The notes under the pieces are model-generated. The model saw nothing but the letters and a program-made list of their open reading frames with translations, had not been told where the DNA came from and ran no database searches. The position numbers were made by a program, and so were the translations under genes. From the NCBI RefSeq assembly GCF_003334315.1, contig NZ_QOWR01000088.1: 10,711 nucleotides of DNA. One strand, written 5' to 3'. Source of the stretch: Escherichia coli (GTDB taxonomy: Bacteria > Pseudomonadota > Gammaproteobacteria > Enterobacterales > Enterobacteriaceae). Below, one piece after another: positions 2,971-6,728 of the stretch; position 1 is the stretch's first letter; each line of letters begins with the position of its first letter.

Positions 2971-3558
2971 ATGCCCAAATTGGGGATGCAGTCGATCCGG
3001 CGCAGACAACTGATCGACGCCACACTGGAAGCAATAAATGAAGTGGGCATGCACGATGCAACGATCGCGCAGATCGCCCGCCGTGCAGGCGTTTCTACGG
3101 GGATCATCAGCCACTATTTCAGGGACAAAAATGGTCTGCTGGAAGCAACCATGCGCGATATCACCAGTCAGCTGCGTGACGCGGTTTTGAATCGATTACA
3201 TGCACTTCCGCAGGGCAGTGCAGAGCAGCGATTACAGGCGATTGTTGGCGGAAACTTCGATGAAACGCAGGTGAGCAGTGCGGCGATGAAAGCCTGGCTG
3301 GCGTTCTGGGCCAGCAGTATGCATCAGCCGATGCTCTATCGTTTACAGCAGGTCAGCAGCCGCCGCTTGCTGTCGAATCTGGTGAGCGAGTTTCGTCGCG
3401 AATTGCCGCGCGAACAGGCACAGGAAGCGGGCTACGGCCTGGCCGCGCTGATTGATGGATTATGGCTGCGCGCGGCTCTGAGCGGCAAACCGCTGGATAA
3501 AACCCGCGCTAATTCCCTGACCCGCCACTTTATCACTCAGCATCTACCCACCGATTAA
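2971..3558 (+). CDS. betI: TetR-family choline-responsive repressor BetI
   Basis: Protein [50 protein letters not shown]... has an N-terminal TetR-type HTH and matches remembered E. coli BetI (195 aa). Start chosen at ATG 2971, preceded by GGAG at 2958-2961. The ORF-track start at ATG 2953 has no Shine-Dalgarno and would add 6 residues. Confidence 0.92.
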
Positions 3559-3571
3559 CCGAGGAGACGTG

Positions 3572-5044
3572 ATGTCCCGAATGGCAGAACAGCAGCTTTA
3601 TATACATGGTGGTTATACCTCCGCCACCAGCGGTCGCACCTTCGAGACCATTAACCCGGCCAACGGTAACGTGCTGGCGACCGTGCAGGCCGCCGGGCGC
3701 GAGGATGTCGATCGCGCCGTGAAAAGCGCCCAGCAGGGGCAAAAAATCTGGGCGTCGATGACCGCCATGGAGCGCTCGCGTATTCTGCGTCGGGCCGTTG
3801 ATATTCTGCGTGAACGCAATGACGAACTCGCAAAACTGGAAACCCTCGACACCGGAAAAGCATATTCGGAAACCTCAACCGTCGATATCGTTACCGGTGC
3901 GGACGTGCTGGAGTACTACGCCGGGCTGATCCCGGCGCTGGAAGGCAGCCAGATCCCGTTGCGTGAAACGTCCTTTGTGTATACCCGCCGCGAACCGCTG
4001 GGCGTAGTGGCAGGGATTGGCGCATGGAACTACCCGATCCAGATTGCCCTGTGGAAATCCGCCCCGGCGCTGGCGGCAGGCAACGCAATGATTTTCAAAC
4101 CGAGCGAAGTTACCCCGCTTACCGCGTTAAAGCTGGCTGAAATTTACAGCGAAGCGGGCCTGCCGGACGGCGTATTTAACGTGTTGCCGGGCGTGGGCGC
4201 GGAGACCGGGCAATATCTGACCGAGCATCCGGGCATTGCCAAAGTGTCATTTACCGGCGGTGTCGCCAGCGGCAAAAAAGTGATGGCTAACTCGGCGGCC
4301 TCTTCCCTGAAAGAAGTGACCATGGAACTGGGCGGTAAATCACCGCTGATCGTTTTCGATGATGCGGATCTCGATCTCGCCGCCGATATCGCCATGATGG
4401 CAAACTTCTTCAGCTCCGGTCAGGTGTGTACCAATGGCACCCGCGTCTTCGTTCCGGCGAAATGCAAAGCCGCATTTGAGCAGAAAATTCTGGCGCGCGT
4501 TGAGCGCATTCGCGCGGGCGACGTTTTCGATCCGCAAACTAACTTCGGCCCGCTGGTCAGCTTCCCGCATCGCGATAACGTGCTGCGCTATATCGCCAAA
4601 GGCAAAGAGGAAGGCGCGCGCGTACTGTGCGGCGGCGATGTACTGAAAGGCGATGGCTTCGATAACGGCGCATGGGTTGCACCGACAGTGTTCACCGATT
4701 GCAGCGACGATATGACCATCGTGCGTGAAGAGATCTTCGGGCCAGTGATGTCCATTCTGACCTACGAGTCGGAAGACGAAGTCATTCGCCGCGCTAACGA
4801 TACCGACTACGGCCTGGCGGCGGGCATCGTGACAGCGGACCTGAACCGCGCGCATCGCGTCATTCATCAGCTGGAAGCGGGTATTTGCTGGATCAACACC
4901 TGGGGCGAATCCCCGGCAGAGATGCCCGTTGGCGGCTACAAACACTCCGGCATTGGTCGCGAGAACGGCGTGATGACGCTCCAGAGTTACACCCAGGTGA
5001 AGTCCATCCAGGTTGAGATGGCTAAATTCCAGTCCATATTCTAA
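3572..5044 (+). CDS. betB: Betaine-aldehyde dehydrogenase BetB (NAD-dependent aldehyde dehydrogenase family)
   Basis: 490-aa protein [15 protein letters not shown]... with aldehyde dehydrogenase hallmarks: catalytic Cys in [11 protein letters not shown] and Glu in MELGGKSP. Start ATG 3572 sits 5 nt after GAGGAG (3561-3566). The ORF-track start at 3569 is a GTG only 2 nt after the Shine-Dalgarno. Starts 13 nt after the betI stop. Confidence 0.96.
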
Positions 5045-5057
5045 CCAGGAGGTTTAT

Positions 5058-6728
5058 TTGCAATTTGACTACATCATTATTGGTGCCGGCTCAGCCGGCA
5101 ACGTTCTCGCTACCCGTCTGACTGAAGATCCGAATACCTCCGTGCTGCTGCTTGAAGCGGGCGGCCCGGACTATCGCTTTGACTTCCGCACCCAGATGCC
5201 CGCTGCCCTGGCATTCCCGCTACAGGGTAAACGCTACAACTGGGCCTATGAAACGGAACCTGAACCGTTTATGAATAACCGCCGCATGGAGTGCGGACGC
5301 GGTAAAGGTCTGGGTGGATCGTCGCTGATCAACGGCATGTGCTACATCCGTGGCAATGCGCTGGATCTCGATAACTGGGCGCAAGAACCCGGTCTGGAGA
5401 ACTGGAGCTACCTCGACTGCCTGCCCTACTACCGCAAGGCCGAGACTCGCGATATGGGTGAAAACGACTATCACGGCGGTGATGGCCCGGTGAGCGTCAC
5501 TACCTCCAAACCCGGCGTCAATCCGCTGTTTGAAGCGATGATTGAAGCGGGCGTGCAGGCGGGCTACCCGCGCACGGACGATCTCAACGGTTATCAGCAG
5601 GAAGGTTTTGGTCCGATGGATCGCACCGTCACGCCGCAGGGCCGTCGCGCCAGCACCGCGCGTGGCTATCTCGATCAGGCCAAATCGCGTCCTAACCTGA
5701 CCATTCGTACTCACGCTATGACCGATCACATCATTTTTGACGGCAAACGCGCGGTGGGCGTCGAATGGCTGGAAGGCGACAGCACCATCCCAACCCGCGC
5801 AACGGCCAACAAAGAAGTGCTGTTATGTGCAGGCGCGATTGCCTCACCGCAGATCCTGCAACGCTCCGGCGTCGGCAACGCTGAACTGCTGGCGGAGTTT
5901 GATATTCCGCTGGTGCATGAATTACCCGGCGTCGGCGAAAATCTTCAGGATCATCTGGAGATGTATCTGCAATATGAGTGCAAAGAACCGGTTTCCCTCT
6001 ACCCTGCCCTGCAGTGGTGGAACCAGCCGAAAATCGGTGCGGAGTGGCTGTTTGGCGGCACTGGCGTTGGTGCCAGCAACCACTTTGAAGCAGGTGGATT
6101 TATTCGCAGCCGTGAGGAATTTGCGTGGCCGAATATTCAGTACCATTTCCTGCCAGTAGCGATTAACTATAACGGCTCGAATGCAGTGAAAGAGCACGGT
6201 TTCCAGTGCCACGTCGGCTCAATGCGCTCGCCAAGCCGTGGGCATGTGCGGATTAAATCCCGCGACCCGCACCAGCATCCGGCGATTCTGTTTAACTACA
6301 TGTCGCACGAGCAGGACTGGCAGGAGTTCCGCGACGCAATTCGCATCACCCGCGAGATCATGCATCAACCCGCGCTGGATCAGTATCGTGGCCGCGAAAT
6401 CAGCCCCGGTGTCGAATGCCAGACGGATGAACAGCTCGATGAGTTCGTGCGTAACCACGCCGAAACCGCCTTCCATCCGTGCGGTACCTGCAAAATGGGT
6501 TACGACGAGATGTCCGTGGTTGACGGCGAAGGCCGCGTACACGGGTTAGAAGGCCTGCGTGTGGTGGATGCGTCGATTATGCCGCAGATTATCACCGGGA
6601 ATTTGAACGCCACGACAATTATGATTGGCGAGAAAATAGCGGATATGATTCGTGGACAGGAAGCGCAGCCGAGGAGCACGGCGGGATATTTTGTGGCAAA
6701 TGGGATGCCGGTGAGAGCGAAAAAATGA
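5058..6728 (+). CDS. betA: Choline dehydrogenase BetA (GMC oxidoreductase, FAD-dependent)
   Basis: Protein [21 protein letters not shown]... has the N-terminal GxGxxG FAD-binding fold of GMC oxidoreductases and matches remembered E. coli BetA (556 aa). Start is TTG at 5058, 5 nt after AGGAGG (5047-5052) and 13 nt after the betB stop. The in-frame ATG at 5013 used by the ORF track lies inside betB and adds 15 non-native residues. Confidence 0.94.

Follow-up and report, generated by a model that had tools for sequence, protein, structure and literature searches.

The DNA analysed here, a stretch of 10,711 nucleotides (nt) hereafter called the window, holds the bet locus of Escherichia coli and matches many genomes at 100% identity. 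The betIBA operon directs the synthesis of the osmoprotectant glycine betaine from choline, and published work describes its three genes as co-transcribed into one mRNA. Their coordinates, with those of the features discussed below, are given in Table 1. The betI-betB-betA′ stretch of 2551 nt matched many E. coli genomes at 100%, and the region was found in 5180 of 5426 genomes. The limits of all three genes coincide with the RefSeq annotation of K-12 MG1655 and of strain CP53; in MG1655, betA is b0311, it codes for 556 residues, and both intergenic gaps measure 13 nt. Equivalog profiles support the identity of each product: BetI scored 306.8 bits against NCBIfam NF001978 (cutoff 118), its residue 1 falling on the first profile position, BetB scored 917.8 bits against NF009725 over its full length (cutoff 593), and BetA scored 1034.6 bits against the betA profile TIGR01810 (cutoff 732.1). 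Both the ORF map and the RefSeq annotation of identical DNA place betI, betB and betA in this order on one strand, with betT divergent, and the order recurs wherever betI was locatable among 80 species loci. A scan of the plus strand from 2700 to 7100 returned three terminator-like sites, all within coding sequence (shuffled sequences gave 4.9 ± 2.2), and placed none at the betI-betB or betB-betA junction, where gaps of 13 nt are too short to hold an intergenic terminator. The layout of betIBA and the TTG start of betA are already known, as both are in the E. coli K-12 reference annotation.

Table 1. Coordinates of the bet genes, their spacers and the predicted RNA features in the window
Feature	Position	Strand	Description
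betI	2971-3558	+	Choline-responsive TetR-type repressor, 195 aa; ATG start, TAA stop 3556-3558; RefSeq annotation of identical DNA
betI-betB spacer	3559-3571	+	13 nt; SD GAGGAG 3561-3566, 5 nt before ATG 3572
betB	3572-5044	+	Betaine-aldehyde dehydrogenase, 490 aa; ATG start, TAA stop 5042-5044; RefSeq annotation
Predicted mRNA hairpin	4994-5060	+	5′ arm 4994-5023 (betB codons 475-484), loop 5024-5030, 3′ arm 5031-5060
Anti-SD-like CCAUCC	5004-5009	+	Inside betB (codons Ser-Ile-Gln); predicted pairing with GGAGG of the betA SD
Upstream in-frame TTG	5013-5015	+	Misread earlier as ATG; not a start codon
betB-betA spacer	5045-5057	+	13 nt; SD AGGAGG(U) at 5047-5052, 5 nt before TTG
betA	5058-6728	+	Choline dehydrogenase, 556 aa; TTG start 5058-5060 read as fMet; annotation

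An earlier note on this DNA had proposed that betA starts at TTG 5058 rather than at an upstream in-frame ATG at 5013. The TTG start was confirmed by annotation and by orthologs, but the ATG does not exist: the three nucleotides from 5013 read TTG and are translated as leucine. The sole ATG between 4981 and 5110 is found at 5018 in the betB frame, where it codes for Met483 of BetB, and not in the betA frame, which is closed upstream by a TGA at 4998. Since 5013 is a TTG and no ATG is in frame, the choice is between TTG 5058 and TTG 5013, not between TTG and ATG.

TTG 5058 is followed by CAA TTT GAC TAC. The alignment of BetA orthologs that the earlier note had suggested as a check bears out the start at this codon: in 50 of 50 enteric loci the protein begins at the homologous position, with an N terminus of the form M/L-(Q/E/H)-(F/Y)-D-Y, and position 1 of the TIGR01810 profile falls on residue 4. 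The first in-frame start downstream is a GTG at codon 29, whose use would remove the GAGSAG FAD-binding motif. Six Klebsiella-type loci (those of Klebsiella and Raoultella, plus one under the label Enterobacter sp.) and three Citrobacter loci have no ATG, GTG or TTG in frame from the preceding stop up to this TTG. In the Klebsiella-type loci measured, the 14-nt spacer shifts the betA frame relative to that of betB, and there is thus no BetA coding sequence upstream.

The start codon itself is TTG in 34 of the 80 species loci (Pseudocitrobacter, Enterobacter, Huaxiibacter, Lelliottia, Leclercia, Klebsiella, Raoultella and Citrobacter) and ATG at the same codon in 16 other enteric loci, and the remaining 30, from Pseudomonas and Moraxella, have an ATG one or two codons upstream. 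Within E. coli, the 61-nt betB-betA junction is identical in 5108 of 5184 records, and no exact match to an ATG version of it was found among the E. coli records searched. In the literature searched, neither an N-terminal peptide of BetA nor profiling of its initiation turned up, betA being absent from the TRAINSPOTTER and TetRP supplements, and no evidence contrary to a UUG 5058 start was found. Comparison among orthologs shows UUG 5058 to be the true betA start, fixed in E. coli and conserved across an Enterobacteriaceae clade; the check yields comparative proof of the start codon and removes the misreading at 5013. The check also shows TTG to be a derived state that has been stably kept in one group of Enterobacteriaceae, other enterics having ATG at the same codon.

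The claim that both junctions have 13-nt gaps and strong Shine-Dalgarno (SD) sequences also held when the spacers were read from the sequence. The predicted duplexes with the anti-SD amount to −8.9 kcal/mol for GAGGAG of betB and −11.0 kcal/mol for AGGAGG of betA, the top two among nine sites tested in the window. The betA SD, AGGAGGU, is near-perfect and begins 2 nt past the betB stop codon, and no structure is predicted for the betI-betB spacer region (z = +1.9). The 13/13 spacing is kept in Pseudocitrobacter, Enterobacter, Lelliottia, Leclercia and Citrobacter loci. The 13-nt betI-betB spacer, beginning with ccgaggag, is conserved in loci of Enterobacter, Citrobacter and Pseudocitrobacter, and an (A/G)GGAGG motif in a betB-betA spacer of 13 to 14 nt occurs in all 33 TTG loci with a measurable spacer. 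As an SD with a spacer of 10 to 15 nt is a common operon junction, the equality of the two gaps carries no special weight. We rejected it as a special feature, the Klebsiella group having spacers of 14 and 10 to 11 nt and other enterics 12 to 28 and 3 to 17 nt. What is non-random about the spacers is, from these comparisons, their conservation.

The end of betB is predicted to fold with the betA ribosome-binding site into a single mRNA hairpin, the 3′ arm of which runs from the final betB codons over the stop codon and the SD-bearing spacer up to and including the UUG start. Its minimum free energy is −34.5 kcal/mol and one of 200 shuffled sequences was as stable (z = −2.75; the sequences being closely related, the hairpin z-scores are not independent). 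The core pairs between 5004-5013 and 5044-5052 had probabilities of 0.87 to 1.0 in contexts of 120, 250 and 500 nt, indicating a context-independent fold. Among the seven ribosome-binding sites tested in the window, that of betA was the most paired, and that of betB was open. Of 13 representatives of the TTG clade, 12 were predicted to fold in the same way, with a probability of 0.81 to 0.87 that the SD is paired. Of 11 ATG loci tested, 10 gave 0.39 to 0.74; the remaining one, Trabulsiella, retains the hairpin (0.86) along with its ATG start, so that hairpin and TTG need not occur together.

The coding sequence that would form this hairpin is unusually constrained. The CCAUCC sequence is invariant in 23 distinct TTG-clade sequences, synonymous positions 5005 and 5008 included, and the six windows of lowest synonymous divergence among 476 cover the last 15 to 20 codons of betB (0.126 to 0.144, against a median of 0.364). 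At the third-codon positions of this region, 10 of 11 unpaired sites vary versus 3 of 8 paired ones (Fisher p = 0.04), and at the three paired sites that vary, pairing is retained in every sequence; Citrobacter amalonaticus has one compensatory change, from G-C to C-G. Covariation, assessed with RNAalifold and by pair counting, amounted to this kind of change at one pair, with a pair broken in two sequences, and was not significant (44 of 500 shuffles reached the observed value), the clade being too conserved for covariation to decide the matter. Weaker synonymous constraint was also detected at the 3′ end of betI (rank 9 of 181) and at the 5′ end of betB, where no structure is predicted, which indicates that part of the constraint at the betB end is a generic junction effect. 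Given the constraint at the betI 3′ end, what is informative about the betB 3′ end is only how extreme its constraint is and how the pattern follows the pairing.

A hairpin that buries the SD and the UUG in the end of betB suggests that translation of betA depends on, and is coupled to, that of betB. In the mechanism that we propose, the final 16 betB codons would fold together with the stop codon, the SD and the UUG into one structure, in which the CCAUCC sequence internal to betB masks the SD. Free 30S subunits would meet a closed site with a weak start codon. A ribosome completing betB would melt the hairpin and terminate with the SD and UUG in or beside its mRNA channel, a position that would favor re-initiation or the prompt loading of a new subunit. 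betA would then be translated mainly by ribosomes fresh from betB, and a weak codon, a strong SD and a masked site would together make the output of BetA follow that of BetB, at or below its level. Such a ratio would fit the pathway, in which BetA makes betaine aldehyde and BetB removes it.

Overall, we hold with considerable confidence that the window contains a canonical betIBA operon with a divergent betT, in which betA starts at UUG 5058 and is probably translated in a betB-coupled manner. We go further only tentatively, with somewhat less than even confidence, in proposing from the predicted hairpin, conserved from Escherichia to Enterobacter, Klebsiella and Citrobacter, that BetA might be made essentially only by ribosomes finishing BetB, and that selection might have brought weak codon, strong SD and masking together to prevent the enzyme that forms the aldehyde from getting ahead of the one that consumes it. 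Our searches found no paper joining betIBA with translational coupling, the full-text search being hampered by matches of “betA” to “beta”. If confirmed, the arrangement would be a tidy, textbook-style case of how the ratio of two enzymes is controlled when their pathway has a toxic intermediate, and it could serve as a guide for heterologous expression of betA or betBA for stress tolerance; even then, a coupling hairpin would change no general concept.

UUG generally initiates less well than AUG. In one classification, AUG, GUG and UUG are grouped together at 10 to 100% of AUG initiation (bioRxiv 10.1101/063800). It is plausible that the TTG lowers BetA relative to BetB, and the very strong SD and translational coupling, which the earlier note left aside, may be as weighty as the start codon. 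A label-free proteome of strain BW25113 gives approximately 91 copies of BetA and 143 of BetB per cell (PMC6544118 supplement). The resulting BetA/BetB ratio of about 0.63 is the only protein-level ratio found, and it was obtained in uninduced cells with two peptides only for BetA, a membrane-associated protein.

The TTG might instead be a tolerated historical accident without a tuning role, BetA levels being set by the strong SD and the operon context and the codon persisting through the constraint on the junction or the youth of the clade. We consider this possible but rather unlikely. The modest departure of the copy ratio from unity would suit it, and so would Trabulsiella, which has ATG in the same hairpin context and a BetA about as E. 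coli-like as those of Klebsiella and Citrobacter. The outgroups all have ATG, so that either codon appears workable, and neighboring sites are invariant too, so that a single invariant site is no proof of selection. However, a T-to-A change is a single step to a generally stronger codon, yet TTG is kept in 34 of 34 TTG loci, across genera in which the other synonymous sites have mostly changed (mean pairwise synonymous codon difference of about 0.35), and in at least 5108 E. coli records. A non-ATG start has moreover been shown to be adaptive in the case of E. coli lacI, which starts with GTG (PMC11445065).

The synonymous conservation at the end of betB might also reflect an element acting at the DNA level or another one at the RNA level, i.e., an internal betA promoter or an RNase processing or stability site, which we regard as improbable. 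The betT mRNA carries a hairpin cleaved by RNase III (PMC4067347), and RNA processing thus does occur in the bet locus. There is also a σ70-like match at 5013-5042, with TTGAGA separated by 16 to 18 nt from CATATT or TATTCT (9 of 12 positions), but it is weak, the region holding 7 such sites versus 3.7 ± 1.8 in shuffled sequences, and a transcript from it would have its 5′ end within the betA SD or directly in front of it. We rejected this internal promoter for its weak consensus match and implausible geometry. Against an unrelated element more generally, variation at synonymous sites follows the predicted pairing, and no Rfam family scored above threshold in the whole window.

Finally, initiation at the in-frame TTG 5013 inside betB, which would yield a 571-residue protein with a 15-residue N-terminal extension, is scarcely credible and effectively refuted: although the betA frame is open from 5001 to 5058, with TTG 5013 as the first start-type codon past the TGA, and although this TTG is conserved in many Enterobacter-like loci, as betB coding and the predicted hairpin account for, its SD is weak (−3.8 versus −11.0 kcal/mol for 5058), it is missing in three Citrobacter loci (L031, L033 and L037), its counterpart in Klebsiella and Raoultella is out of frame with a stop before it, an in-frame stop lies 3 to 27 nt upstream of the start in 11 of 12 ATG-start enteric loci checked (at −69 in the twelfth, L038), and the extension lies outside every alignment to the betA family profiles.

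The reading that we favor, a betIBA operon with betA starting at UUG 5058 and probably coupled to betB, can be compared with three known systems. The betIBA genes of E. coli K-12 (b0313 to b0311), with their divergent betT, have the same order, limits, 13-nt spacers and TTG start as those described here; they were reportedly first sequenced, together with betT, by Lamark et al. in Molecular Microbiology in 1991. The junction is that of MG1655 base for base, and no difference was found inside the coordinates studied. The difference of this strain from K-12 is confined to the flanks, with an IS1 in yahV on the left side.

Translational coupling mediated by mRNA structure was reportedly described for atpH-atpA by Rex et al. 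in the Journal of Biological Chemistry in 1994, and the interaction between the coat and replicase genes of phage MS2 is another case. The likeness to coupling of the atpH-atpA type lies in a predicted pairing of the downstream ribosome-binding site with the upstream coding sequence, translation of which would open the site. The betB-betA junction differs in that its pairing is a prediction, with covariation that is not significant, and in that a stop-to-start distance of 13 nt allows termination and re-initiation without any structure.

The start codon of betA resembles that of lacI, as both are near-cognate starts conserved across related enterics in a metabolic gene cluster, one base away from an ATG, a change that is not seen. 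However, lacI encodes a regulator and starts with GTG, the effect of which was demonstrated in vitro and in mice (PMC11445065), whereas betA codes for an enzyme, stands last in its operon and starts with TTG.

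Many complete E. coli genomes match positions 2850-5400 at 100% identity, and 5180 of 5426 genomes carry the stretch, where it is annotated as betI, betB and betA. BetI, BetB and BetA each outscore the curated cutoff of the corresponding NCBIfam equivalog, and the bet genes of the window are the canonical choline-to-glycine-betaine operon. In K-12, both the betI-betB and the betB-betA gaps are 13 nt long and betA is b0311 (556 aa); the betB-betA junction shows no differences between the window and K-12. The betIBA layout and the betA TTG start are already known, because they equal the E. 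coli K-12 reference annotation. What the analysis adds is a modest hypothesis of betB-betA coupling, one that can be tested.

Features of the window (gene limits transferred to window coordinates from the annotation of CP53 and K-12 MG1655)
Feature	Position	Strand	Source
betT	809-2842	-	CP53/K-12 MG1655 annotation
betI	2971-3558	+	CP53/K-12 MG1655 annotation
betB	3572-5044	+	CP53/K-12 MG1655 annotation
betA	5058-6728	+	CP53/K-12 MG1655 annotation
ykgH, ykgG, ykgF, ykgE	after betA, in that order		CP53/K-12 MG1655 annotation
Predicted hairpin, 5′ arm	4994-5023		
Predicted hairpin, loop	5024-5030		
Predicted hairpin, 3′ arm	5031-5060		

To the left of the operon, positions 1-453 (+) hold an IS1 element cut to its 3′ portion, with the end of the terminal inverted repeat at about 453; an ORF at 61-438 gives a 127.9-bit match to the IS1 transposase, in its C-terminal half. 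Among 5426 complete E. coli genomes only 147 have the IS1-betT junction, and K-12 and CP53 lack it. The insertion disrupts the small gene yahV (432-503, -), the product of which ends differently from the ...IGIAIILVIIC* of K-12 and CP53, its last residues therefore being encoded by the IS1 end. A simple scan of the 212-nt betA-ykgH gap (6729-6940, +) found no intrinsic-terminator-like site. In CP53, betA is followed by an IS5 element and the next annotated gene is fdeC, not ykgH; the downstream flank is thus strain-variable.

The earlier note had described 13-nt spacers and a strong Shine-Dalgarno (SD) sequence at both junctions, and our reading agrees. The betI stop (TAA, 3556-3558) is separated from the betB ATG (3572) by 13 nt including GAGGAG (3561-3566), and the betB stop (TAA, 5042-5044) from the betA TTG by 13 nt including AGGAGG (5047-5052), with 5 nt between SD and start in both cases. 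The predicted SD/anti-SD duplexes (-8.9 kcal/mol for betB, -11.0 for betA) are the strongest among nine window sites tested. A GTG lies in frame directly before the betB ATG (GTGATG, 3569-3574, +), where an ORF lister begins the gene; only 2 nt separate it from the SD, and it is not conserved in ortholog spacers (ending in ...attt, ...aacc, etc.); by these comparisons betB starts at ATG 3572. Similarly, betI has an in-frame ATG at 2953 (2953-2973, +), 18 nt upstream of its annotated start; this ATG has no SD (+0.4 versus -6.0 kcal/mol), and the BetI family profile begins at the annotated Met.

We read the codon aligned to BetA residue 1 in 80 loci encoding BetA relatives, one per species. It is TTG in 34, all Enterobacteriaceae (Pseudocitrobacter, Enterobacter, Huaxiibacter, Lelliottia, Leclercia, Klebsiella, Raoultella and Citrobacter), and all 33 with a measurable spacer have 13-14 nt containing (A/G)GGAGG. 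ATG occupies exactly this codon (MQFDY or MEFDY) in 16 further enteric loci (Trabulsiella, Pluralibacter, Cedecea, Pantoea, Kosakonia, Rosenbergiella, Tatumella and related isolates). Ortholog alignment, the check proposed in the earlier note, places the N terminus at the homologous codon in both enteric groups. The 30 Pseudomonas and Moraxella loci have an ATG one or two codons upstream, following gaps of 41-278 nt.

Each enteric betA ORF was then extended upstream to the preceding in-frame stop, a sequence comparison that is decisive for the start. Six loci of the Klebsiella type (from Klebsiella, Raoultella and one labelled Enterobacter sp.) and three from Citrobacter lack any ATG, GTG or TTG between this stop and the betA TTG. 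The spacer of the Klebsiella group, at 14 nt, shifts the betA frame relative to betB, so that nothing upstream can encode BetA. Of the 12 loci with an ATG start that were checked, 11 have in-frame stops 3-27 nt upstream and one has its stop 69 nt upstream. In the window, the betA frame is closed upstream by TGA 4998, and the first downstream in-frame start-type codon is a GTG at codon 29, past the GAGSAG dinucleotide-binding motif. In the 556-aa BetA, the match to the TIGR01810 betA profile starts at residue 4. Among 5184 E. coli records, 5108 carry the same 61-nt junction as the window, and none matches an ATG version exactly. Since the ORF extensions, the profile start and the E. coli junction identity agree, we conclude that the annotated start, TTG 5058, is correct, as the earlier note had suggested. 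The in-frame ATG that it placed at 5013 reads TTG (5013-5015), and the sole ATG near the junction, at 5018, is Met483 of BetB and out of the betA frame. Initiation at TTG 5013 is excluded, as the 15-residue extension found no match in a profile search, and the upstream ORF comparison and duplex predictions argue against it. The literature available to the analysis yielded no direct experimental mapping of the betA start.

The betB-betA junction (116 nt) has a predicted folding energy of -34.5 kcal/mol (z -2.75), equaled by 1 of 200 shuffles. In the predicted hairpin, CCAUCC inside betB (5004-5009) pairs with GGAGG of the betA SD and CAG (4994-4996) with the betA UUG; core pair probabilities are 0.87-1.0 whether the context is 120, 250 or 500 nt. 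Of seven ribosome-binding sites in the window, that of betA has the strongest predicted pairing; the betI-betB junction, by contrast, is predicted open (z +1.9). The same fold, with a probability of SD pairing of 0.81-0.87, is predicted for 12 of 13 representatives of the TTG-start clade and for Trabulsiella. The latter has ATG in the same junction context, and the betA TTG may thus be a tolerated codon, not a selected one. No consistent structure emerged in the remaining tested enterics with an ATG start (z -1.6 to +1.6, SD pairing 0.39-0.74), which, Pluralibacter excepted, have longer spacers.

Synonymous divergence was computed between the window and 28 co-linear TTG-clade loci. The last 15-20 codons of betB (0.126-0.144 versus a median of 0.364) include the six lowest of 476 betB windows, and in betA the first 15 codons rank lowest among 539 windows; constraint at the 3′ end of betI is weaker (rank 9 of 181). 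Within the hairpin stretch, third-codon positions of betB vary at 10 of 11 unpaired and 3 of 8 paired sites (Fisher p = 0.04; p ~0.05 by our own hypergeometric calculation without the Met codon), and pairing at these three is kept in 23 of 23 sequences. An internal promoter, to which a weak 9-of-12 match at 5013-5042 could correspond, or a processing site is a less likely cause of the conservation, because variation at the betB 3′ end follows pairing. Covariation in the hairpin was not significant (44 of 500 shuffles as good), with one compensatory G-C to C-G change and two broken cells, and the hairpin remains a prediction. Codons 10-14 of betA (5085-5099, +) form a separate, perfect 6-bp hairpin, GCCGGC-UCA-GCCGGC. 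All 23 aligned sequences keep it, altered at most by G-U wobbles. It arises from the double use of the same codons for Ala-Gly-Ser-Ala-Gly in the FAD-binding motif, and may only reflect that protein motif.

The betA UUG follows a near-perfect SD located 2 nt past the betB stop codon. From the predicted fold we infer ribosome-coupled initiation of betA through hairpin melting. Ribosomes finishing betB would unwind the hairpin, and termination would leave the SD and UUG within or beside the mRNA channel, such that terminating ribosomes, or subunits loading immediately after, could initiate betA. Free 30S subunits would meet a masked site and a weak start codon. BetA output would then be tied to, and capped by, that of BetB, which fits the pathway chemistry, betaine aldehyde being the product of BetA and the substrate of BetB. 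UUG, which starts ~3% of E. coli genes, generally initiates more weakly than AUG; AUG, GUG and UUG together cover 10-100% of AUG-level expression (bioRxiv 10.1101/063800). The only protein copy numbers found, per cell in BW25113, 90.7 for BetA (2 peptides) and 143.1 for BetB (7 peptides) (PMC6544118, Supplementary Table S3), are compatible with such a cap, if weakly so.

In Pseudomonas, betB and betA are 54-199 nt apart, in contrast with the 12-28 nt of enteric junctions. These gaps often contain GC-rich palindromic repeats, e.g., gtagcccggatgcaatccggg, that recur across species and look like REP-type elements. Structure-mediated translational coupling has been described for atpH-atpA, which the predicted betB-betA hairpin resembles. 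For a conserved non-ATG start as a tuning device, the GTG of lacI is a demonstrated precedent (PMC11445065).
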